This document shows, piece after piece, positions 1 to 16,532 of a stretch of 32,000 bases of DNA. A model generated the notes under the pieces. It worked only from the letters and a program-made list of their open reading frames with translations, was not told the DNA's origin and searched no databases. The translations under genes and the position numbers were made by a program. This stretch comes from Gemmata obscuriglobus (GTDB lineage: Bacteria; Planctomycetota; Planctomycetia; Gemmatales; Gemmataceae), in NCBI RefSeq assembly GCF_008065095.1, contig NZ_CP042911.1, positions 3,330,001 through 3,362,000 on the forward strand. Reading direction: 5' to 3'. The number at the start of each line of letters is the position of its first letter. Position 1 is the stretch's first letter.

Positions 1-1526
1 GGCTGTTCAAGTTCGCCGACACCACCGGCGATGACGCCGTGATGGCCCGGTTCCTGACTGGGTTCGATCGCACCATCCGCCGGCGTCGCGTCACGAAGGT
101 GCGTTACAACCACCGCCGCCGCGAGAACGAGCAGTACGAAGCGGTCGTGACCCCGAGCGACACCGTACTCGCACGCGACGACCGCTCGTACAGCGGGCCG
201 TGGTTTACCGCCGACCGGGAACAGTTCACTGCCGGGAAGTTCCTGTTCTCCGTTGCGACGCGGAACTACCTGCGTCGCCGGGCGTGGCGGTACTTTCGGA
301 AACTCGGACGCCAGCACCCCGAGCGGTACATCTCAGCCGTTTGCACGGCGCTCAAACTCTACACCGACGCCGACGCCCCGGACGGCCTCGCGCTGCTCGA
401 CAACTGGGGGCTCGTTCACGTCCTGTTCCACCACTCGCCCGTTCTCGACGCGAAGCCGACCGGCTGGCGCGTCGCGGACGGCGGGTCACTGTCGCGTTTG
501 CAACCCGAGCCCATGTTCCGCAAACTGTGGTTGCGGAGCGCCGAGCCGATCTTCGACCTCTTGGTGCGTGCGAGGTGCCGGCCCGTCGCGATGTGGGCGG
601 TGCAGATGCTCCGGAAGCACTTCCCGGAGCGACTGACACAACTCACGCTCGACGAGCTTCTGGAGTGGCTGGTCTCGCCGAGCAGCGTTCTGAACGAACT
701 CGCGCTGGAGGTGCTCGAAAAGCGCGGCGGGCTGGAACAGGTCACGATCGAGCAGTGGTTGCGCATCACCGACGAAGCCCGGACGGACCTGCTCGACCGC
801 ATCTGCGAACTGGTGGCGCGGAGTGTTAAACCGGAACAGGTGACGTTCGCCGACGCCGTGGCGCTCGCGATGCAGCGCCCGGTTCCGCTCGCCCGGCTCG
901 GCTTGACGTTCCTTCAAGGGAAGAAGGTCAACACCGCCGAGGAAATCACTGCGGTGTTCGGGCTGCGGAACGCCGAGTGCGAACCCTTGCGCGTCGATCT
1001 GGTGAAGTGGGCGTGCGAGGTGCTGAGTTCGCGGACGGACTTCGACCCCGTATGGGTGCTCGAGTTCCTCGACTCGCGCTTTGAAGAGGTGCGTGAGGTG
1101 GGCTGGGAGTGGTTCCAGATCGAGCCGCGTGCCCGCGACGCGGTACTGGTGTGGCAGCGCCTCCTGGAATCCCCTTACGACAACATCCGCTTCCGACTGG
1201 TCGGTATGCTGGAGGAGCGGATCAAGTCGCGCGACGGTTTTGGGCAGCTTCCGCCGGACCGCGTGCGGTTCCTCTGGGCCACGGTGCTGCTGAACGTCCA
1301 GCGCGGCAGCCGGGCAAAGCCGTTCGTGGTGCGCCAGGTCATCGACCGGCTCAGTGCGAGCCCGGACGAGGCCGGCGACCTGCTGCCGATGATCGCGGTC
1401 TCGCTGCGGTCGGTGCGCGGGCCGGAGTTCCGCGCCGGGCTGGCGGGGGTGGCGCGATTCGTTGCGAAGAACCCGACGCGCAAGCCTCTGGTGGAGGCGG
1501 TATTTCCCGAACTGCAGTGGGGTTGA
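1..1526 (+). CDS. Hypothetical Leu-rich alpha-helical repeat protein (HEAT/ARM-like by eye), C-terminal part; probably truncated by the window edge
   Basis: The reading frame is open from the window edge through the first GTG/ATG at 39-44, with stop TGA at 1524-1526. Helical segments recur, e.g. LDELLEWLVSPSSVLNELALEVLEKRG and VLVWQRLLESPYDNIRFRLVGMLEERI. No catalytic motif recognised. Confidence 0.6.
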   Translation, partial: LFKFADTTGDDAVMARFLTGFDRTIRRRRVTKVRYNHRRRENEQYEAVVTPSDTVLARDDRSYSGPWFTADREQFTAGKFLFSVATRNYLRRRAWRYFRKLGRQHPERYISAVCTALKLYTDADAPDGLALLDNWGLVHVLFHHSPVLDAKPTGWRVADGGSLSRLQPEPMFRKLWLRSAEPIFDLLVRARCRPVAMWAVQMLRKHFPERLTQLTLDELLEWLVSPSSVLNELALEVLEKRGGLEQVTIEQWLRITDEARTDLLDRICELVARSVKPEQVTFADAVALAMQRPVPLARLGLTFLQGKKVNTAEEITAVFGLRNAECEPLRVDLVKWACEVLSSRTDFDPVWVLEFLDSRFEEVREVGWEWFQIEPRARDAVLVWQRLLESPYDNIRFRLVGMLEERIKSRDGFGQLPPDRVRFLWATVLLNVQRGSRAKPFVVRQVIDRLSASPDEAGDLLPMIAVSLRSVRGPEFRAGLAGVARFVAKNPTRKPLVEAVFPELQWG

Positions 1527-1558
1527 GTTGTCGATGTTAAATGTGTGCGAGTCGGACA

Positions 1559-1691
1559 CACAGGGCTCCCGCCCTGTGCTACGCTCGGCAACCCCTACGG
1601 GGTGCAAAGACTGAGTACACGAACAACAACCGCCGTTGGATTTTCCGCCCCGGAGGGGCCGGTGGACGTAGCACAGGGCGGGAGCCCTGTG
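1559..1691. repeat. MITE-like element: perfect 25-bp terminal inverted repeats flanking an 83-nt core
   Basis: cacagggctcccgccctgtgctacg (1559-1583) is the exact reverse complement of cgtagcacagggcgggagccctgtg (1667-1691). Each arm is also internally palindromic (cacaggg...ccctgtg). Confidence 0.7.
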
Positions 1692-1702
1692 CCAACAACT
1701 AA

Positions 1703-1910
1703 GGTGTCCGTCGCGATCCGAGACCTTCTCTGCGGCGTTCCGCCGCGGGTGCAGTTGCTCGCGATTGCGTTCCCCGAGCCGTTGGTCTTTTCGCCGCCCG
1801 GGGTACTCCCAGGACGGACTGAATCGACCTGCATCTCCGTCCCGGGAGTACCCCGGGCGGCGTTCGTGAACGACTCGGGTCCACGATTGAAGTCGGTCGC
1901 GGCGGACACC
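1703..1910 (+). ncRNA. Retron-like msr-msd ncRNA, copy A (distal from the RT gene)
   Basis: Same 208-nt length and architecture as copy B. The terminal stem a1 1703-1721 / a2 1893-1910 has 17 Watson-Crick pairs, 1 G-U pair and 1 bulge. It carries the conserved block ctgcggcgttccgccgcgggtgc, a 27-position hairpin 1792-1818/1836-1862 (26 pairs, 1 mismatch) with the conserved loop ctgaatcgacctgcatc, and the conserved 3' block ggtccacgattgaagtcgg. Confidence 0.6.
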
Positions 1911-1926
1911 GCAATACACGAAGACC

Positions 1927-2030
1927 GAAGAGCTTTTGACAGGATCAACAGGATTTAACGGGATCGAAAACAAGCGATGCTCTTCGCCTTTTCAATCCCG
2001 TTGATCTTGTTAATCCTGTTAAAACTCTTC
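1927..2030. repeat. Imperfect palindromic intergenic element of the gacaggatcaacaggat family, copy 1; possible terminator
   Basis: gaagagcttttgacaggatcaacaggatttaacgggatcgaaaa (1927-1970) pairs imperfectly with ttttcaatcccgttgatcttgttaatcctgttaaaactcttc (1989-2030). Its 5' 28 nt match 6131-6158 at 27/28 positions. Confidence 0.7.
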
Positions 2031-2061
2031 AACGCCCAGCGCAGTTCGGGAGAGGCTCCGA

Positions 2062-3756
2062 ATGCAACTGAACACGGCGTATCGCGGGCGCAGTGCCGTC
2101 GCCCAGACCCCCGTCGGTCTGGCGGTGTCGCTCGCGCCGAACCTGCGCCGCGACCGCGTCAGCTACACGGGCGTGTTGCGCCAGCCGCTTCGGTTCCGCG
2201 AAGCCATGTCGGCGCTTCACGACGTGGTCATTTCGGACCTGCGGTTCAAGCCGAAGGACAAGACCGCATACGAGGAGTGGAAGAAGGAAGAGGCCGCGAA
2301 AGAAGCCCACATCCGCACCGAGGCCGTGAAGCTCAAACGCGCGGAACTCGAAAAGGAACGTGGCCGCCCCATGCCGCCCGGCCTGGAGCGCAAGTTCCAG
2401 CGGTGCCGGCAGCGCTACTGGGACGCGCGGACGCGGTACAGCAACCTGCTGTCGCGCGAAGACCCGGAACTGTGGCGGATGCTGATGCCGTGCGACCCGG
2501 TCATCACTGTCAGCCCGGACGTGATGTTCTTCGAGTGTTTCAGCGCGGACGAGAGCAGCTACGGGTGCCTGACTGTCGAGCGGGACGCCTTCGAGGCCGA
2601 GCGCGACGTTGCCCTCGGTACCACCAACGTCGATTACTCCTGGCGCCTGTACGAGCACTTCCAGACCATCCGCAGTTACCGCGAGACGCGCTTCACCATC
2701 GACCCGCTCGGCTTCGAGGTGCAGACCAGCACCGACGACCCGGCATACCGCGAAGAGAAGATCGACCTGCCGCAGTCGTGGCTCCGCGGGTTCTCGTCGC
2801 TTCAAAGCGCAATGAGCCTGCCGATGCGGCGCGTGCCGCTCAGCCGCGAGGCGGTCTATTCGGTGATCGCGTTTCTGACCCGCAACAAGTCCAAGCGGTC
2901 GCCCCGGGCCGTGCGCTTCGAGCTGACGCCCGGCCGGCCGGTGAAATTGGTTCTCGAGCCGTGGGACAAGGAGATCGTGGTCCACGACCTGCCGTCTTCT
3001 GGGGCGCGGAAAGAGGTGATTCGCACCTGGGGGCGGGACCGGCTCCGCGTGCTCGGGCGACTGCTGCCGCTGCTCGACGGCGTGGACGTGTACCTGCTGG
3101 GAACGGGGCTGCCGAGCTTCTGGGTCGCGAAGATGGGGGAAATGAAGCTCACGCTCGGGCTCTCCGGGTGGACCGCCAACGACTGGACGAGTGGCGGCAG
3201 TGCCATCGACCAAATCGCACCGCCGGTGGCGCCGTCCAACGACGTGATGCAGGCGATGGCCGCCGCGTTCAGAGACTCCCCGACGTGGACGCTACCGGCG
3301 CTGGCCACGAAGACCCGCGGGTCCGAGGCCGCGGTGTCGGCCGGGTTAAACAAGCTCGCCCTGCTGGGGCAAGTGATTCACGACCTCCCGCACGGCGTGT
3401 ACCGGTGGCGCCAGGTGATGCCGGTGACCCTTTCGGCCGAGGTGATCGGCCCCGAGAACGAGGAGACGGTCGCCGCCCGCGAACTCACGCGCTGGCGGTG
3501 CAAGATCAACTCCGACAAGACGGACGCGAAAGGGCAGCGGCAGGTTGTGGGGACGGTCGACGGCCGCTCCACGTCCGAGGTGACGCTGGACGCGGACGAC
3601 CGCATCGTGGCGGGCAAGTGCGGCTGTTCGTACTTCTACACGGGCGGGCTGCGGAAGGGGCCGTGTCGGCACCTTCAAGCGCTGCGCAACAAGGCGCTGG
3701 GCGTCGGCGGGGACGGCGGGACGCTCGACAACTGGTTCCGGCGGTTCACGAACTGA
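2062..3756 (+). CDS. SWIM zinc-finger domain protein (564 aa)
   Basis: C-terminal CxC-x12-CxH motif (GKCGCSYFYTGGLRKGPCRHLQAL). ATG is preceded by gggagagg. A Lys/Glu-rich coiled segment lies near the N-terminus. Confidence 0.85.
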   Translation: MQLNTAYRGRSAVAQTPVGLAVSLAPNLRRDRVSYTGVLRQPLRFREAMSALHDVVISDLRFKPKDKTAYEEWKKEEAAKEAHIRTEAVKLKRAELEKERGRPMPPGLERKFQRCRQRYWDARTRYSNLLSREDPELWRMLMPCDPVITVSPDVMFFECFSADESSYGCLTVERDAFEAERDVALGTTNVDYSWRLYEHFQTIRSYRETRFTIDPLGFEVQTSTDDPAYREEKIDLPQSWLRGFSSLQSAMSLPMRRVPLSREAVYSVIAFLTRNKSKRSPRAVRFELTPGRPVKLVLEPWDKEIVVHDLPSSGARKEVIRTWGRDRLRVLGRLLPLLDGVDVYLLGTGLPSFWVAKMGEMKLTLGLSGWTANDWTSGGSAIDQIAPPVAPSNDVMQAMAAAFRDSPTWTLPALATKTRGSEAAVSAGLNKLALLGQVIHDLPHGVYRWRQVMPVTLSAEVIGPENEETVAARELTRWRCKINSDKTDAKGQRQVVGTVDGRSTSEVTLDADDRIVAGKCGCSYFYTGGLRKGPCRHLQALRNKALGVGGDGGTLDNWFRRFTN

Positions 3757-3792
3757 CGGCGCCCGGGGCGTAACGGCAAAGGTAAGGGCACC

Positions 3793-4257
3793 GTGACGAA
3801 GCCGGTTCTGCTCGCGGGGGTGCTCGGCGGGGTACTCGGGGGCGCCGGAGCGTTTGTGCTGGGGCGGGCGTTCCCGGCGGCGCCGGCGGTGGTGGTCGAG
3901 AAACCGCACGAGGCCCGGCCGTTCGCCGACGACCTGTTCATGAAGCTTCAGAAGGGGCAGGCGGATGAGTTCCTGGCGGCGGTGCGTGTGGGGGACCCCG
4001 AATACGACGATGCGGAGTTCGACAAGCTGATCCGCCAGCCGATGCTGCGGGTGCGCGAGGGGGCGGTTCGAGGGTACGGCGGCGCGGGCTCGTTCGAGTT
4101 CTTTCGCGAAACGGTCACCGCGCCGGACCTCGTCCGCTTCACGTACCTGGAACGCTACCCGCGCGGGTGCCTCGTGTGGCTGCTGTACTGCTACCGCGGG
4201 GCCGGCGGCTGGCACCCGATCGGGCTCAAGTTCCTCAAACCGGATGTCGTGTTGTAA
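3793..4257 (+). CDS. Small membrane-anchored or secreted hypothetical protein (154 aa)
   Basis: GTG start preceded by aaggtaaggg. N-terminal hydrophobic helix KPVLLAGVLGGVLGGAGAFVLG. The gene lies 36 nt after the SWIM gene and 30 nt before ncRNA copy B. Confidence 0.6.
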   Translation: MTKPVLLAGVLGGVLGGAGAFVLGRAFPAAPAVVVEKPHEARPFADDLFMKLQKGQADEFLAAVRVGDPEYDDAEFDKLIRQPMLRVREGAVRGYGGAGSFEFFRETVTAPDLVRFTYLERYPRGCLVWLLYCYRGAGGWHPIGLKFLKPDVVL

Positions 4258-4286
4258 GTGATGAAGTAACAGAGACTACTGAAGCC

Positions 4287-4494
4287 AAGCGGCCGGCTCC
4301 GAGACCTAAACATCCTGCGGCGTTCCGCCGCGGGTGCGGCTGCTTGCGATTGCGTTCCCGGGAGTGTTGTTCGTTTCGCCGGTCGAATTCGTGGCGCTTC
4401 CGGCCTGAATCGACCTGCGTCTCCGGAAGGCCACGAATTCGACCGGCGTGGTGAACGCTCTCGGTCCACGATTGAAGTCGGAGCCGGCCGCCTT
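4287..4494 (+). ncRNA. Retron msr-msd ncRNA, copy B (immediately upstream of the RT)
   Basis: a1 4289-4302 pairs with a2 4478-4491 as 14 perfect bp, plus 2 more after a bulge. It has the GC hairpin gcggcg-ttc-cgccgc and a 26-bp hairpin 4377-4403/4423-4448 with one bulge and loop cctgaatcgacctgcgtct. It ends 20 nt before the RT start codon, the canonical msr-msd-ret order. Confidence 0.75.
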
Positions 4495-4514
4495 GTTACC
4501 CGCGAGCATCGCTC

Positions 4515-6125
4515 ATGAGCCTCTTCGACTGGGTGTTCCGCCGGAAGCGCGACGCGGACACCCCTCCGGCGCCACCCCCAGCCGCGCCGACTGCTCCCGC
4601 TTCTTCGGACAAAGCACCGTCGGGTAACACCACCTCGGGGACTCCGGGGGCGAATGCTCCTCGCTCGTCCGAGGGGAGCGAAGACCAGTACGCCGCGAAC
4701 GACTTCCTGCCCATTTCGCGTCAGGAGATCGTCGACGCTGCCAAGAAGCACGGGCGCCTGCTCGCCACCGCGTTCCAGTTCGGGCGCCAGAGCATCATCC
4801 CGCCCGTCAGCGACCCGCGGACCGAGATCATCGACCGCGCGCTCGTTACGCACGGACTGCTCACGCCCGAAGAACTGAACGAGATCCACCGCGTCGGCGA
4901 GGAGTACGAGAAGGTCCGCCCGACCGAGCAGGGCATTGCGGCTGCAGCCGGACTGGCCGGCACCGCCGCCGTGCAAGCGTACCGGGCGGCCAAGGAGGCG
5001 GAGAAGGAGCGCAAGAAAAGAGAAGCGGAGCTGCGCAAGAAGGTGCGCGCCGAAGCCGTCTGGCGGCGCCGCACCACCGATATCATTTTTTTGGGGCGTG
5101 GTGTGTCGGGGCGGCTCCACCTGCGCTTGAGCGACGAGGGGCGCCTCACGGAACTCGGGTTGCCGGTGATGCACACGCCCGCTGATGTCGCGAACGCCCT
5201 CGGCCTCACCGTTCCGCGGCTCCGCTGGCTGGCGTTCCACACCGATGTGGCCACCCGCACGCACTACGTGAAGTTCTCGGTCCCGAAGAAGTCCGGCGGG
5301 ACGCGCCAGCTCGCCGCGCCGCACAAGAGTTTGAAGGCCGCGCAGCACTGGATTCTGGCGAACGTCGTGAACAAGCTGCCGGTGACCGAGGCCGCGCACG
5401 GGTTCGTTGCCGATCGCGGGATCGTGACCAACGCAAACCCGCACGTTTGCAAGGCGTTCGTGGTGAACTTGGACCTGTCGGACTTCTTCCCCTCGATCGC
5501 GTTCCCGCGGGTGCGGAGCGCGTTCGAGCGGTACGGCTACTCGGGTTGTGTTGCCACCATTCTTGCGCTGCTCTGCACCGAGTGCCCGCGCGCCGCGGTA
5601 ACCTATGCCGGAACCAAGTACGAGGCCGCGACCGGCCCGCGCGGGCTACCGCAGGGCGCGCCCACCAGCCCCGGGCTGTCGAACCAAGTCGCGCGCAAGC
5701 TCGACAAGCGGCTGCTCGGGGTCGCGACGAAGCTCGGCCTCACCTACACCCGCTACGCCGACGACCTCACCTTCTCCGGTGATGCGGACGCCGCTGCCAA
5801 GATCGGCTGGCTGCTTACGAAGGTGCGCCACATCGCCAGCGAGGAAGGGTTCGCCGTCAACGAGAAGAAGACCCGTGTGATGCGCCGCAGCGCGGCCCAG
5901 ATGGTCACGGGTGTGGTGGTGAACGACAAGCCGTCCGTGTGCCGCGACGAGCTGCGCCGGTTGAGGGCGATTCTGCACCGCGCGAAGTCCGAAGGGCTGG
6001 ACGCTCAGAACCGCGAAAAGCTGCCGAACTTCCGCGAGTGGCTGCGCGGGAAGATCGCGTTCGTGAGTATGGTCCGCCCGGACGCCGGCGCGAAGCTCAA
6101 GGCTCAACTCGACGCCGTGTCGTAA
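4515..6125 (+). CDS. Retron-type reverse transcriptase with a roughly 200-aa N-terminal extension (536 aa)
   Basis: RT motifs VVNLDLSDFFPSI, RGLPQGAPTSPGLSN and YTRYADDLTFSG (YADD). Retron-typical NAxxH (TNANPHV) and VTG (QMVTGVVVND) motifs are present. The N-terminus is a Pro/Ala/Ser-rich low-complexity stretch followed by a Lys/Glu coiled segment (AKEAEKERKKREAELRKK). Confidence 0.9.
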   Translation: MSLFDWVFRRKRDADTPPAPPPAAPTAPASSDKAPSGNTTSGTPGANAPRSSEGSEDQYAANDFLPISRQEIVDAAKKHGRLLATAFQFGRQSIIPPVSDPRTEIIDRALVTHGLLTPEELNEIHRVGEEYEKVRPTEQGIAAAAGLAGTAAVQAYRAAKEAEKERKKREAELRKKVRAEAVWRRRTTDIIFLGRGVSGRLHLRLSDEGRLTELGLPVMHTPADVANALGLTVPRLRWLAFHTDVATRTHYVKFSVPKKSGGTRQLAAPHKSLKAAQHWILANVVNKLPVTEAAHGFVADRGIVTNANPHVCKAFVVNLDLSDFFPSIAFPRVRSAFERYGYSGCVATILALLCTECPRAAVTYAGTKYEAATGPRGLPQGAPTSPGLSNQVARKLDKRLLGVATKLGLTYTRYADDLTFSGDADAAAKIGWLLTKVRHIASEEGFAVNEKKTRVMRRSAAQMVTGVVVNDKPSVCRDELRRLRAILHRAKSEGLDAQNREKLPNFREWLRGKIAFVSMVRPDAGAKLKAQLDAVS

Positions 6126-6130
6126 TTCAT

Positions 6131-6235
6131 GAAGAGCGTTTGACAGGATCAACAGGATGGACAGGATGTCAAAGGCAATAACTACAGCGTCCTGTCATTG
6201 AAATCCTGTCCTTCCTGTTGATCCTGTCAAAAATC
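6131..6235. repeat. Palindromic intergenic element of the gacaggatcaacaggat family, copy 2; possible terminator after the RT gene
   Basis: tttgacaggatcaacaggatggacaggat (6139-6167) pairs with atcctgtccttcctgttgatcctgtcaaa (6204-6232) at 28/29 positions. It has the same orientation and the same 5' block as copy 1. Confidence 0.7.
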
Positions 6236-6272
6236 AACACGCATTCGCCGCACTGCCACCATTTGAGGTTGT

Positions 6273-7973
6273 ATGCGTTACCTCTCGCTGTTGGTTCTTC
6301 TCGTGTGCGCGCCGGCGGCGCGAGCGACCGAGAAACCGAACATCGTCATCGTCCTCACCGACGACATGGGGTTCTCGGATCTCGGTTGCTACGGCGGCGA
6401 GATCAGCACTCCGAATCTCGACGCGCTGGCTGCGAACGGGTTGAGGTTCACGCAGTTCTACAACACCGCGCGGTGCTGCCCGACGCGGGCGTCACTGCTC
6501 ACCGGGCTGTACCCGCACCAGGCGGGCGTCGGTCACATGGTCAACGACAAGGGTGAGAAGTTCCCCGGCTATCGTGGAGACCTGAACAAGAACTGCGTCA
6601 CGCTTGCGGAAGCGGTGAAGCCGGCCGGATACCGCGCGTACGCGGTCGGCAAGTGGCACGTCACGCCCCACACCGGTCCGAAGGCGCCGAACCACAACTG
6701 GCCGCTTCAGCGCGGGTTCGACCGGTACTACGGCACCATCCAGGGCGCCGGGAGCTTCTTCGATCCGGCCTCGCTCACCCGCGACAACACACAGATTTCG
6801 GCGTTCGCGGATCCGGAGTATCAGCCGAAGACCTACTACTACACCGACGCCATCTCCGACCACGCGGTGCGCTTCGTCGCCGATCACGATAAGGAGCACA
6901 AGGACAAACCGCTGCTACTGTACGTCGCCTACACCGCGGCGCACTGGCCGATGCACGCGCTCCCGGAAGACATCGCGAAGTACAAGGGGAAGTACGGGAA
7001 CGGGTACGATCCCGTGCGAAAGGCTCGGTTCGAGAAAGCCGCGAAGCTGGGCCTCATCGACCCCAAGCAGGGGATGGCGCCCGGCGCCGGCGACTGGAAC
7101 GCAGTCGCGGATAAGAACTGGGAGGCCGCCGGGATGGAGGTGTACGCGGCGATGGTGGACCGGATGGACGCGGGCGTTGGGAAGATCGTCGCCGAACTGA
7201 AACGCACCGGGCGGTTCGACAACACGCTGATCCTGTACATGCAGGACAACGGCGGGTGCGCCGAACTTCAGGGGCGCACGGGGAACAAAAACCACCCGAA
7301 CATCGACCGCCCGGAGAAGCCGACCCTCCCGCCGCTGAAGGCCGACGCCCTCTTGCCATCGGGGAGCGTGCCGCCGCAGACCCGTGACGGGTTTCCGGTG
7401 CGCATGGGGCCGAAGGTGATGCCCGGGGCCGCGGACACGTACCTCGCCTACGGCCGCGGGTGGGCCAACGTGTCGAATACCCCGTTCCGCGAATACAAGC
7501 ACTGGGTCCACGAGGGCGGCATCAGCACCCCGCTCATCGCGTCGTGGCCGAAGGGCATTGCCGCGAGGGGCGAGTTGCGCACCCAGCCCGGGCACCTCGT
7601 GGACGTGATGGCGACCTGCATCGAACTGAGCGGCGCGCCGTACCCGGCTGCGGTCGGCGCGCAGGCGATTACACCGCTCGAGGGCAAGAGCCTCGTTCCG
7701 GCGTTCGCGAACAAACCGCTCGCGCGCGAGGCGATCTACTGGGAACACGAGGGCAACCGGGCGGTGCGCGCCGGGGACTGGAAGCTGGTCGCGAAGGGGC
7801 CGGGCGGGAAATGGGAACTGTACAACATCAAGGACGACCGCACCGAGTCGAGCGACCTCGCCGCAAAGCAACCCGACAAGTTAAAGGAACTCGTCGCGAA
7901 GTGGGAGGCGTGGGCCGTTCGCGCGAAGGTCGTCCCGTGGATCTCGACGCCAGAATACAAACTGAGCAAGTGA
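6273..7973 (+). CDS. Secreted arylsulfatase (Cys-type sulfatase family)
   Basis: Signal peptide MRYLSLLVLLVCAPAARA. Metal-binding start IVIVLTDDMGFSDLG. Formylglycine motif CCPTRASLLTG. Shine-Dalgarno gagg precedes the ATG. Confidence 0.9.
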   Translation: MRYLSLLVLLVCAPAARATEKPNIVIVLTDDMGFSDLGCYGGEISTPNLDALAANGLRFTQFYNTARCCPTRASLLTGLYPHQAGVGHMVNDKGEKFPGYRGDLNKNCVTLAEAVKPAGYRAYAVGKWHVTPHTGPKAPNHNWPLQRGFDRYYGTIQGAGSFFDPASLTRDNTQISAFADPEYQPKTYYYTDAISDHAVRFVADHDKEHKDKPLLLYVAYTAAHWPMHALPEDIAKYKGKYGNGYDPVRKARFEKAAKLGLIDPKQGMAPGAGDWNAVADKNWEAAGMEVYAAMVDRMDAGVGKIVAELKRTGRFDNTLILYMQDNGGCAELQGRTGNKNHPNIDRPEKPTLPPLKADALLPSGSVPPQTRDGFPVRMGPKVMPGAADTYLAYGRGWANVSNTPFREYKHWVHEGGISTPLIASWPKGIAARGELRTQPGHLVDVMATCIELSGAPYPAAVGAQAITPLEGKSLVPAFANKPLAREAIYWEHEGNRAVRAGDWKLVAKGPGGKWELYNIKDDRTESSDLAAKQPDKLKELVAKWEAWAVRAKVVPWISTPEYKLSK

Positions 7974-7992: not shown

Positions 7993-8940
7993 ATGCGACT
8001 TCTCCTCGCCTTAACAGCCCTGGCCGTTGCGGCGGTGCCAGTGGCTTCCGCCGCCGATTCCAAACACCCCGGCTACCGCATCCTCGCGCAGGACAAGGGG
8101 CACGTTGCGATCGTCGGCGCCGACGGCAAAGTGGAATGGGAGATCGAGTGCAAGCACAACTCCCACGACGCTCACCTGCTCCCGAACGGCAACCTGCTGC
8201 TCCACACCGCGCCGACCGTGGTGACCGAGTACACGCCCAAGAAGGAAGTGGTTTGGAAGTACGACGCGAAGCAGAAGGAGGGTTACAAGGGGCGCGTGGA
8301 GGTTCACGCCTTCCAGCGCCTCGCCGACGGTAACACGCTGGTCGCCGAGAGCGGCAACCGGCGCATCGTTGAGGTGAACAAGGACGGCAAGATCGTGAAG
8401 GAGATCGCCCTCCAGGTGAACCGCCCGGACCCGCACCGCGACACCCGCATGGTCCGCAAGCTCGACACCGGTAACTACCTCGTGTGCCACGAGGGCGATG
8501 GCGCGGTGCGCGAGTACGACACGGCCGGGAAAATCGTGTGGGAGTACAAGCTCGACCTGGGCGGGCGCAAGGAGTCGCCCGGCCACGGCCCCGAGGGGCA
8601 CGGAACCGCGGTGTACGGCGCCATCCGACTTGCGAACGGCAACACGCTGATTTCCGGCGGTAACAACAACCGCGTGCTCGAAGTCGATAAGGACGGGAAG
8701 ATCGTGTGGAGCATCGACCAGAAGGAGCTGGACGGGATCACGCTGGCGTGGGTGACGACGCTGCACGTCCTGCCGAACGGGAACGTGATCGTCGGCAACT
8801 GCCACGCCGGCGACGGGAACCCGCAACTGTTCGAGGTGACGCGCGACAAGAAGGTGGTCTGGCGGTTCAAGGACTTCCGTACCTTCGGTAACAGCTTGGC
8901 CGCCGCGCACGTGCTCGACATCAAGGACGTGCGCCGCTGA
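7993..8940 (+). CDS. Secreted beta-propeller repeat protein (PQQ-like/BamB-like repeats by eye)
   Basis: Signal peptide MRLLLALTALAVAAVPVASA. Six recurring blades have the core DGK(I/V)VWE: DGKVEWE, KKEVVWKY, DGKIVKEI, AGKIVWEY, DGKIVWSI, DKKVVWRF. Confidence 0.75.
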   Translation: MRLLLALTALAVAAVPVASAADSKHPGYRILAQDKGHVAIVGADGKVEWEIECKHNSHDAHLLPNGNLLLHTAPTVVTEYTPKKEVVWKYDAKQKEGYKGRVEVHAFQRLADGNTLVAESGNRRIVEVNKDGKIVKEIALQVNRPDPHRDTRMVRKLDTGNYLVCHEGDGAVREYDTAGKIVWEYKLDLGGRKESPGHGPEGHGTAVYGAIRLANGNTLISGGNNNRVLEVDKDGKIVWSIDQKELDGITLAWVTTLHVLPNGNVIVGNCHAGDGNPQLFEVTRDKKVVWRFKDFRTFGNSLAAAHVLDIKDVRR

Positions 8941-16457: not shown

Positions 16458-16532
16458 TTGCGGCGGTTGGATTTGAACCAACGACCTCCAGGTTATGAGC
16501 CTGGCGAGCTGACCGGGCTGCTCCACGCCGCG
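16458..16532 (-). tRNA. Initiator tRNA-fMet (anticodon CAU), CCA not encoded
   Basis: The reverse complement reads CGCGGCG-TG-GAGC-AGCCCGGTCA-GCTC-G-CCAGG-CTCATAA-CCTGG-AGGTC-GTTGG-TTCAAAT-CCAAC-CGCCGCA-A. The cloverleaf folds, with the C1-A72 mismatch and A11:U24 pair typical of bacterial initiators. Confidence 0.9.

Follow-up and report, generated by a model that had tools for sequence, protein, structure and literature searches.

A type XIII retron locus of Gemmata obscuriglobus with two msr-msd RNAs and a hypervariable msd stem

A small part of the window (the whole stretch of Gemmata obscuriglobus DNA analysed here, 32,000 nucleotides of contig NZ_CP042911.1) combines one reverse transcriptase (RT) with two structured RNAs and three further genes. 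This raises the question to which class of retrons the locus belongs and what a second RNA could contribute. The probable explanation, in our view, is a vertically inherited retron of type XIII on the chromosome, with one RT and two msr-msd genes, in which the RT-msDNA would hold an effector inactive and the variable stems would sense invaders.

Gene content and class of the locus

The four ORFs and both structured RNAs lie on one strand at the positions given in the first-pass annotation (Table 1), and the gaps noted there also hold. The SWIM gene and the small ORF are 36 nt apart, ncRNA B follows the small ORF after about 25-30 nt, and the RT start lies about 12-20 nt beyond ncRNA B. The HEAT/ARM frame has no upstream stop inside the window and is 5'-truncated by its edge, with about 84 codons missing; it covers profile positions 87-557 of 564 in the PADLOC HEAT-ARM_XIII alignment. 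Its complete orthologue in L001, a 98% identical locus, has 591 aa (5238-7013), and a full-length orthologue in L030 matches HEAT-ARM_XIII at 1.6e-184. As the frame is open and the orthologue has 591 aa, the system should begin about 250 nt before the window.

Table 1. Coordinates of the predicted retron components within the window
Feature	Position	Strand	Evidence or detail
HEAT/ARM-repeat protein gene	3..1526 (ORF 39-1526, open to base 3)	+	PADLOC HEAT-ARM_XIII, E=2.4e-151
ncRNA A (msr-msd, A site, between HEAT-ARM and SWIM)	1701..1917	+	CM 224.7 bits, E=2.4e-58
ncRNA A, a2 arm; a1 arm	~1702-1721; 1893-1912	+	
ncRNA A, predicted branching G; opposing G	1722; 1892	+	
ncRNA A, msr hairpins	1729-1749, 1756-1769	+	
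ncRNA A, msd; long stem	~1773-1891; 1793-1817/1837-1861	+	
SWIM gene (primary accessory of type XIII, putative effector)	2062..3756	+	PADLOC SWIM_XIII, E=1.8e-180
Small accessory gene	3793..4257	+	100% identical to G. obscuriglobus GobsT_28210
ncRNA B (msr-msd, RT-proximal B site)	4282..4502	+	CM 204.4 bits, E=6.6e-53
ncRNA B, a2 arm; a1 arm	~4286-4302; 4478-4494	+	
ncRNA B, predicted branching G; opposing G	4303; 4477	+	
ncRNA B, msr hairpins	4314-4334, 4341-4354	+	
ncRNA B, msd	~4358-4476	+	
ncRNA B, long stem	4378-4403/4423-4447	+	contains CGAATTCG
Retron RT, N-terminal extension ~200 aa	4515..6125	+	PADLOC RT_XIII, E=8.6e-155, 514 bits

The RT, of which each locus has a single one, carries the motifs NAxxH (NANPH, aa 306-310), YADD (aa 414-417) and VTG (aa 464-466), matches Pfam RVT_1 at 1.3e-20 and has the Ec86 RT as its nearest solved relative (1.3e-43). 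Its next-best PADLOC models are RT_other (358 bits) and RT_outgroup (340 bits). Type XIII, the class named in the first-pass annotation, proved to be right: the HEAT-ARM_XIII, SWIM_XIII and RT_XIII models match far above those of other retron types. Type XIII is defined by a clade-10 RT, a DEDE/winged-helix/SWIM protein and a HEAT/ARM protein, includes Retron-Mxa1/Mx162, Mxa2/Mx65, Sau1/Sa163 and Nex2/Ne144, follows 16S in its distribution and has a long history in myxobacteria (Mestre et al. 2020, PMC7736814). It was already known from Planctomycetota, with 26/143 in the SPIRE survey. By model matches and gene content, the G. obscuriglobus locus is thus a type XIII retron and belongs to a known class of unstudied mechanism. 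To call this class poorly characterised is inaccurate for its origin, given that the classic Mx162, Mx65, Sa163 and Ne144 belong to it, and is apt for its accessory proteins: a literature search returned no experiment that defines what the SWIM and HEAT-ARM partners do or how they act, and no msDNA, transcript, toxicity or phage report for the G. obscuriglobus retron or for any type XIII accessory protein. A diversity-generating retroelement was rejected because the RT matches retron models only in PADLOC and because the RNA copies differ by replacement of whole stems, in both arms and with pairing kept, and not by adenine-specific substitutions.

Chance adjacency of the HEAT/SWIM pair to an RT, raised earlier as a point to check, finds no example among the sufficiently flanked Gemmataceae loci, in all of which HEAT-ARM, SWIM and RT are co-linear; HEAT-ARM is kept upstream of SWIM in all complete loci. 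The SWIM protein has an acidic motif (D145-x7-D153-x4-E158-x32-D191, nt 2494-2634) and a CxCx12CxH zinc finger (CGCSYFYTGGLRKGPCRH) at aa 520-537 (nt 3619-3672), both invariant in a 36-sequence alignment; the last acidic residue lies at x39-40 and not at the published x37. Comparison with structure databases found no solved relative. With a pLDDT of 57.5 the AF2 model is poor; Foldseek matches it to sliding clamps only, at low TM, which points, with low confidence, to a clamp-like fold and not to a nuclease.

The product of the small gene had been described as a small membrane protein. An N-terminal hydrophobic anchor (aa 5-23, Kyte-Doolittle mean 2.19) agrees with this description; it is followed by a probable NTF2-like alpha+beta domain (aa 41-150) that is modelled with pLDDT >90 across residues 41-150 and an alpha3+beta4 topology. 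The top PDB matches in Foldseek have NTF2-like folds, though with weak scores (E 1.8e-3 to 0.1, TM 0.3-0.5), and UniRef labels the family DUF4864 (NTF2-like superfamily). No Pfam family was found at E up to 10, none of note among nine relatives, and no PADLOC family. As a fixed component of the system the gene did not hold up: it occupies the same slot in L001, L002, L003, L004, L006, L012, L021 and L030 and is missing from L007, L009, L011, L013, L016 and L020. On this distribution it is an accessory restricted to some lineages. Because it is missing from many loci and has paralogues outside retrons, it may even be a passenger that came to lie between SWIM and ncRNA B and has no part in the retron, which we consider a serious possibility, if somewhat short of an even chance. 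About half of the loci lack it, including L009 with a 79% identical RT; a 38% identical paralogue adjoins an oxidoreductase gene in the retron-free L028; and the wider family has 700 representatives. Against a mere passenger, the gene never changes place or direction where it occurs (at least eight loci at 34-97% identity), and the intervals around it are short (36 nt here).

Upstream of ncRNA A, an inverted repeat (1559-1691) was considered as an Acido-Lenti-1 RNA and rejected, since its scores of 31.8 and 30.9 bits are below the Rfam gathering threshold of 37; the Rfam scan at gathering threshold reported no Acido-Lenti-1 there.

Paralogous msr-msd RNAs across Gemmataceae

In their predicted folds, both RNAs show the complete canonical retron architecture. 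NcRNA A folds with a dG of -136 kcal/mol (z=-9.7 against dinucleotide shuffles) and an a1/a2 duplex of -35.8 kcal/mol that ends in the geometry CCGA/G...G/TCGG; the values for ncRNA B are -128.6 (z=-9.3) and -35.2 kcal/mol. The two are paralogous and lie in exact register at a distance of 2585 nt, with 82% column identity, and because their msr halves are near-identical, one RT should recognise both. NcRNA B is contiguous with the RT, and ncRNA A is parted from it by two genes and ncRNA B.

The second ncRNA, treated in the first-pass annotation as an extra element of this locus, is real, but it represents a conserved feature of Gemmataceae, and copy A is the more universally kept of the two. 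Between one and three paralogous msr-msd genes accompany each RT in this family, with at least two in 12 of the 15 complete loci. Wherever a locus includes the HEAT/SWIM spacer, the A-site copy is present, and in L007, L013 and L016 the RT-adjacent copy is lost, so that only the non-contiguous A copy remains. All 60 distinct copies have an a1/a2 helix of 13-20 bp ending CCGA/G opposite G/TCGG, a G-to-G distance of 169-176 nt, the msr hairpins and the long msd stem. Covariation across these copies is very strong: 96.8% of the cells are paired, compared with 34-43% in slid controls, and double changes occur at 35 of 51 pairs, including all 25 long-stem pairs. G·U pairs account for 22% in msr helices but for only 0.8% in msd helices (Fisher P=7e-79), as expected if msd helices must also pair as DNA. 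The msd helices thus follow a DNA-type, Watson-Crick-only pairing, which provides indirect support for reverse transcription.

It could be argued that the additional copies are neutral or redundant, that their stems drift under the pairing constraint alone, and that GC-rich hairpins together with gene conversion yield palindromes and mosaicism as a side effect. We consider this improbable. The a1/a2 sequence classes are position-specific across many species, which indicates an old and maintained duplication, and the A copy is retained despite the loss of its RT-adjacent counterpart in the three loci named above. On the other hand, msd sequences vary among retrons in general (PMC7736814), and further points on both sides come from the stems themselves.

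The msd stem and possible roles of the msDNA

Alignment of the copies indicates that the msd stem is hypervariable and exchanged as a block. Its 25 bp are unrelated between strains with 98-100% identical scaffolds: ncRNA B of the window and its counterpart in L001 have a scaffold-column identity of 0.983 and a stem identity of 0.31, all mismatches in their pairwise alignment falling inside the stem-loop block, and the same window stem equals that of the distant L006. Stem identity is at most 0.64 in 8 of 12 copy pairs whose scaffolds are at least 94% identical. Within loci, the stems differ in all 21 copy pairs, and no locus has two equal stems. Unrelated stems in identical flanks and the near-absence of G·U intermediates argue for the replacement of cassettes and not for gradual drift. 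Both speak against neutral copies, as does the lack of equal stems within any locus, because gene conversion would homogenise them; sub-segments common to some stems are nevertheless suggestive of ordinary recombination.

The stems are also enriched in palindromes of 8-12 nt. Palindromes of at least 8 nt occur in 21 of 58 stems (10.7±2.9 expected from composition-matched shuffles) and those of at least 10 nt in 11 of 58 (3.4±1.7 expected); this excess is just 2-3 fold and some stems are related by descent, and its moderate size would also suit neutral by-products. The two-fold-symmetric sites include ACCGGT, GGTACC, GAATTC, GATATC and CCCGGG, among others.

The mechanism that we favour would combine these features as follows. 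The single RT would prime from the 2'-OH of G1722 and of G4303 and copy about 110-120 nt of each msd, resulting in two msDNAs that have scaffold and loop in common and differ in their duplex stems. By analogy to Ec86 and other retrons, the RT-msDNA complexes may keep SWIM and HEAT-ARM in an inactive assembly, while the palindrome-rich variable DNA stems would offer a surface for DNA-binding or DNA-modifying enzymes of the invader; alteration of the msDNA would then release the effector. On the same analogy, two or three different stems would broaden the sensing range, and stem exchange between copies and strains would mirror an arms race.

A different role within the cell has to be weighed against this. 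The retron could be a domesticated, vertically inherited module that serves, for instance, DNA metabolism or regulation, with the msDNAs as structural or regulatory cofactors and not as an anti-phage sensor. The conserved chromosomal site in Gemmataceae, where the same downstream beta-propeller and sulfatase genes adjoin the retron in 11 and 6 loci, fits such a housekeeping role and defence equally well. The correlation of type XIII with 16S and its age in myxobacteria (PMC7736814) favour domestication, as does a literature search that gave no defence phenotype for type XIII, and the low-confidence SWIM model resembles a sliding clamp and not a toxin. A fixed housekeeping cofactor is, however, difficult to reconcile with stems replaced as blocks between genomes whose RTs are 98% identical, with the obligatory difference between copies of one genome and with the sharing of one stem by distant species. 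These are signatures of diversifying selection or conflict, and we judge domestication to be rather unlikely.

Beyond the favoured sensing mechanism, a bolder version sees the type XIII retrons of Gemmataceae as a natural form of multiplexing, in which a single RT would make a small repertoire of msDNAs. Their stems would serve as interchangeable "bait" cassettes for methyltransferases, nucleases or other dimeric DNA binders of invaders and would be swapped between copies and strains by recombination through the conserved scaffold, possibly with msDNA as donor. This version is unlikely as it stands. If true, specificity in type XIII immunity would be set by the msd stem, and this would give a first functional handle on Mx162-type retrons. 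A sharply bounded, hypervariable, Watson-Crick-only stem exchanged between strains suggests that conflict-driven selection acts on the msDNA duplex, and offers a first target for mutation.

Comparison with known systems

Mx162 and Mx65 were the first retrons found, 40 years ago, and the Gemmata system resembles their type in many respects. RT, SWIM (DEDE and CxCx12CxH) and HEAT/ARM match the type-specific models, and the genes stand in the order HEAT-SWIM-RT. Also common to both are an N-terminal extension of the RT, vertical inheritance and an ncRNA with a1/a2 arms, two Gs that face each other, hairpins in the msr and a long stem in the msd. Different from type XIII otherwise, with one msr-msd gene per RT, Gemmataceae have one to three, and their universal copy, which occupies the spacer of HEAT-ARM and SWIM, is non-contiguous with the RT, whose start follows about 2.6 kb downstream. 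In the Polyangiaceae relative L022, the HEAT and SWIM ORFs overlap and leave no room for such a copy, and the ncRNA keeps its canonical RT-adjacent position. Further differences are the small, probably NTF2-like gene added in some Gemmataceae loci and the exchange of msd stems as cassettes. Retron pipelines that inspect only the neighbourhood of the RT would miss or miscount the conserved, non-adjacent ncRNA.

Ec86 (Retron-Eco1, type II-A) provides the closest solved RT, and its msDNA stem-loop bears a short symmetric site. Modification by a phage methyltransferase, Dcm, that acts on CCWGG of this stem triggers the system (bioRxiv 10.1101/2023.08.16.553469), and we propose sensing through a stem site as a model of how the palindromic stems of Gemmataceae would work. 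Unlike the Gemmata retron, Ec86 has a nucleoside deoxyribosyltransferase-like effector, a single ncRNA and no HEAT/SWIM partners, and resides on a mobile island and not at a conserved site.

The closest parallel to several templates per RT is synthetic. Engineered multiplexed retron arrays, used for genome editing, supply several msd templates to one RT, and as in Gemmataceae the msr-msd units have a common msr recognition module and differ in their msd. A literature search returned no natural retron with several msr-msd units per RT. A natural RT that serves two or three template RNAs would be of direct interest for multiplexed retron editing.

Gene content and classification of the locus

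The locus is a type XIII retron and thus belongs to an already-known class. Within positions 1-6235, four plus-strand ORFs were called at exactly the positions given in the first-pass annotation. No upstream in-frame stop precedes the first ORF within the window, the PADLOC HEAT-ARM_XIII profile alignment begins only at position 87, and the orthologue in L001, a related locus near-identical to that of the window, has 591 aa; about 84 codons have therefore been lost to the window edge. The type-specific PADLOC models matched all three core proteins (HEAT-ARM_XIII, 2.4e-151; SWIM_XIII, 1.8e-180; RT_XIII, 8.6e-155). RVT_1 in the RT was the sole Pfam match among the locus proteins, and the Pfam search of the HEAT-ARM, SWIM and small proteins returned no family. 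Direct reading revealed the RT motifs NAxxH (as NANPH, 306-310), YADD (414-417) and VTG (464-466), with some 200 aa of N-terminal extension ahead of them, and, in the SWIM protein, the acidic set D145-x7-D153-x4-E158-x32-D191 and a CxCx12CxH finger at aa 520-537; none of these SWIM residues varies across 36 homologues. These features correspond to type XIII as defined by Mestre et al. 2020 (PMC7736814), a class that includes Mx162, Mx65, Sa163 and Ne144. The type-specific matches and the defining motifs thus bear out the class that the first-pass annotation had named. A 2026 survey already recorded 26 type XIII retrons from Planctomycetota.

Features of the window (z scores of ncRNA folds are against shuffled sequences)
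Feature	Position	Strand	Remarks
HEAT-ARM ORF	39-1526	+	ORF call; start side cut by window edge
Inverted repeat	1559-1691		133 nt, near-perfect; 50-nt arms; dG ~-89 kcal/mol; between HEAT-ARM stop and ncRNA A
ncRNA A	1701-1917	+	paralogue of ncRNA B; fold dG -136 kcal/mol, z -9.7
Predicted branching G, copy A	1722
Predicted msr/msd boundary, copy A	near 1770-1773		between helix 3 and helix 4
msd stem, copy A	1793-1861		helix 6 of alignment A5
Hairpin repeat	1927-2030		~100 nt; dG -56.5; after ncRNA A
SWIM ORF	2062-3756	+	ORF call
Small accessory ORF	3793-4257	+	ORF call
ncRNA B	4282-4502	+	paralogue of ncRNA A; fold dG -128.6 kcal/mol, z -9.3
Predicted branching G, copy B	4303
Predicted msr/msd boundary, copy B	near 4355-4358		between helix 3 and helix 4
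msd stem, copy B	4378-4447		helix 6 of alignment A5
RT ORF	4515-6125	+	ORF call
Hairpin repeat	6134-6235		~100 nt; dG -58.7; after RT stop
Sulfatase gene	6273-7973
Beta-propeller/PQQ-like gene	7993-8940
tRNA gene	16458-16532	-	sole Rfam match above gathering threshold in the 32-kb window

In the N-terminal region of the RT (aa 1-210, nt 4515-5140), residues 15-55 are of low complexity and rich in Pro, Ala and Thr, and residues 168-195 form a highly charged KEAEKERKKREAELRKKVRAEAVWRRR helix. The first 50-60 residues of the region are poorly conserved in relatives, and tblastn matches often begin at residue 41-62.

Sequence and profile searches of the PDB with the SWIM and HEAT-ARM proteins found no relatives. 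An AF2 model of the SWIM protein, built from 36 sequences of at least 61% identity, was poor (pLDDT 57.5). Foldseek with this model returned 132 PDB matches at E <= 1e-3, and the best 50 of the 132 were all sliding clamps (PCNA, beta-clamp, 9-1-1), with a TM of ~0.45 and an rmsd of 11-12 Å. A DNA-clamp-like fold is thus possible for roughly aa 150-400, where a DEDE transposase-like motif has been described; we regard this as a lead and not as a finding. For a deeper alignment, 5739 SWIM homologues are available.

The small protein is 100% identical to Gemmata obscuriglobus GobsT_28210 and carries an N-terminal hydrophobic segment (aa 5-23, Kyte-Doolittle 2.19). Its AF2 model shows an alpha3+beta4 domain with pLDDT >90 over residues 41-150, and the best PDB matches of this domain are weak and all NTF2-like. 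The small gene holds the same slot in at least eight loci (34-97% identity) and is missing from about as many. L028, a locus retrieved for comparison, encodes a 38%-identical paralogue (1564-2046) adjoining a GFO/IDH/MocA oxidoreductase, and neither a SWIM gene nor a retron ncRNA lies close by; the family thus also occurs outside retrons. The wider family comprises 700 representatives, only 22 of them at E <= 1e-30. The gene is real, a lineage-specific recruit and a putative retron partner. The gene spacing points to an operon. A scan for sigma-70 promoters detected none, and a terminator scan stayed at background level; both scans are uninformative for Planctomycetes.

Paralogous ncRNAs and their distribution

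Both RNAs of the window are paralogous retron ncRNAs. They align in exact register, 2585 nt apart, with the 5' part, the 3' part and the loop conserved and the central stem different. Relatives were gathered from 27 loci via the RT and from further loci via the small protein, and about 30 extra ncRNA copies were identified in metagenomes by their invariant 3' scaffold motif. A covariance model from 25 copies served to align 61 copies (60 distinct); in this alignment, standard pairs occupy 96.8% of the pair cells, as compared to 34-43% when the partners are slid by 1-3 columns. Double changes occur in 35 of 51 pairs, and in the long central helix covariation extends to 25 of 25 pairs. Every copy examined has a terminal helix of 13-20 bp (-27 to -43 kcal/mol), bounded by CCGA then G on the 5' side and by G then TCGG on the 3' side, with a G-to-G distance of 169-176 nt. 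This matches the canonical retron geometry of a2/branching-G versus opposing-G/a1 (PMC7736814). Rfam at permissive thresholds contained no retron family for the window and gave only sub-threshold Acido-Lenti-1 and a spurious miRNA match to hairpin repeats.

Copy number was tallied in 15 loci with both intergenic regions present, each of which contains one RT. Two copies were found in the window, L001, L003, L009, L011, L012, L020, L021, L030 and L041, three in L002 and L006, and a single copy, between HEAT-ARM and SWIM, in L007, L013 and L016. In L007, only 39 nt separate the SWIM end from the RT, too few to accommodate a B copy. Partial metagenome contigs contain tandem pairs (L094, L101) and a triple (L052). 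Multiple ncRNA copies are a trait of the family, and copy A is the constant member. The a1/a2 sequences fall into position-specific classes kept across species, GGTGTCCGTCGCG at the A-site and CCAAGCGGCCGGC or CGGGTGGYCGGTG at the B-site, which argues that the duplication is old and maintained.

In some relatives, tandem pairs occupy the HEAT/SWIM spacer, resulting in three ncRNAs per RT. Tandem copies are located at 6725-6943 and 7102-7318 in L002, at 2140-2356 and 2436-2653 in L006, at 1965-2182 and 2247-2464 in L094, and at 1115-1329 and 1514-1711 in L101. The L094 scaffolds are 97% identical and the stems only 64%, suggesting a recent duplication in which the stem is already diverging.

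In L022 (Polyangiaceae), the sole myxobacterial-type relative retrieved, the HEAT/WGR and SWIM ORFs overlap, and one candidate ncRNA only is present, in the 300-nt gap ahead of the RT. From this arrangement, the HEAT/SWIM-intergenic copy appears to be a Gemmataceae innovation.

Pairing constraint, palindromes and exchange of the msd stems

In the two 5' (msr) hairpins, 22% of the cells are G·U pairs, against just 0.8% in the three 3' helices (154/693 versus 16/2068; odds ratio 37; Fisher P=7e-79). G·U turns into C·A in the cDNA and is therefore not tolerated in a helix that has to pair in the RNA as well as in its DNA complement. The contrast is indirect evidence that the 3' half of the ncRNA is copied into DNA, and it puts helix 3 on the msr side and helix 4 on the msd side of the predicted boundary. 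We infer an msDNA of approximately 110-120 nt.

The msd stems contain perfect palindromes of 8-12 nt. In the 5' arms of 58 distinct stems, palindromes of at least 8 nt occurred in 21 (10.7±2.9 in composition-matched shuffles) and those of at least 10 nt in 11 (3.4±1.7), both with P <0.001. For the first 25 copies, compared with random genomic 25-mers, the corresponding numbers were 11 versus 1.7 expected and 7 versus 0.5 expected. Stems that are otherwise unlike each other repeatedly carry the cores ACCGGT, GGTACC, CCCGGG, GAATTC (window B: CGAATTCG) and GATATC. The enrichment, though real, is moderate in size, and part of the stems share ancestry. Further restriction-site-like cores that recur among unrelated stems are AGTACT, ACTAGT, AACGTT and GTGCAC.

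Orthologous copies are 78-98% identical in their flanks, but just 16-50% in their stems. In the window and L001, whose RTs are 98% identical, the A copies disagree at 3 of 217 positions, while the B copies have unrelated stem-loops, with no mismatch beyond the stem-loop block and a scaffold-column identity of 0.983. Conversely, the window B stem and that of L006 agree at 96% identity, although the RTs share only 75%. Stem identity is at most 0.64 in 8 of 12 copy pairs with scaffolds at least 94% identical, and is at background (~0.3) for scaffolds less than ~0.97 identical. In none of the 21 within-locus pairs do the two stems agree, and some stems are mosaics with only the lower or upper part in common. 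This pattern and the almost complete lack of G·U intermediates indicate that the stems are replaced as blocks by recombination through the conserved scaffold, and disfavour gradual compensatory drift. A DGR-like mechanism for the hypervariable stem was also rejected. To see whether the stem arms could have been captured from foreign DNA, other parts of the loci were searched for them; none was found besides a duplicate contig.

Chromosomal setting and proposed function

Three further elements, an inverted repeat and two hairpin repeats, are not core retron parts. The inverted repeat at 1559-1691 is found elsewhere only in L001 (7045-7180) and thus resembles a species-specific inserted element, perhaps MITE- or REP-like. 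Acido-Lenti-1 scores 31.8 and 30.9 bits against its two arms, below the threshold of 37. The hairpin repeats are built on TTGACAGGATCAACAGGAT, a motif with six matches in the window against 0.02 expected, and may be terminators or small mobile repeats. They occur only in this species and in L001, whose second copy is degenerate, and were for this reason dismissed as boundaries of a mobile SWIM-to-RT unit and attributed to local insertion.

Downstream of the RT, the beta-propeller/PQQ-like gene is present in 11 loci and the sulfatase gene in 6; upstream, L001 and the window have no common flank. The shared downstream genes place the retron at a conserved chromosomal site rather than in a variable defence island, which agrees with the report that this class is vertically inherited (Mestre et al. 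2020, PMC7736814). Such inheritance, and the lack of a type XIII phenotype in the literature searched, favour a domesticated role other than defence, the main rival explanation, but the conflict-like turnover of the stems speaks against it.

In the literature searched, which covers few subscription journals, we found no description of natural multi-ncRNA retrons and nothing relevant on Gemmata retrons. New relative to that literature are a natural retron with one RT and multiple ncRNAs, a conserved ncRNA that is not adjacent to the RT, and exchangeable stem cassettes with Watson-Crick pairing only. This variant opens the long-unexplained Mx162-type retrons to experiment.

Alongside the directly supported parts and architecture, their conservation and covariation, the DNA-type pairing constraint, the copy number and the cassette exchange, we propose a defensive mechanism. 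Following established retron biochemistry, the single RT would recognise the msr module common to both RNAs and produce two branched msDNAs. By analogy with characterised retrons, notably Ec86, the RT-msDNA complexes would hold the SWIM/HEAT-ARM module in check for as long as no invader has altered the msDNA, and the variable palindromic stems could be the surface that is sensed. In Ec86, CCWGG in the msDNA stem-loop is methylated by phage Dcm and defence is triggered, which provides a model for sensing in this retron.
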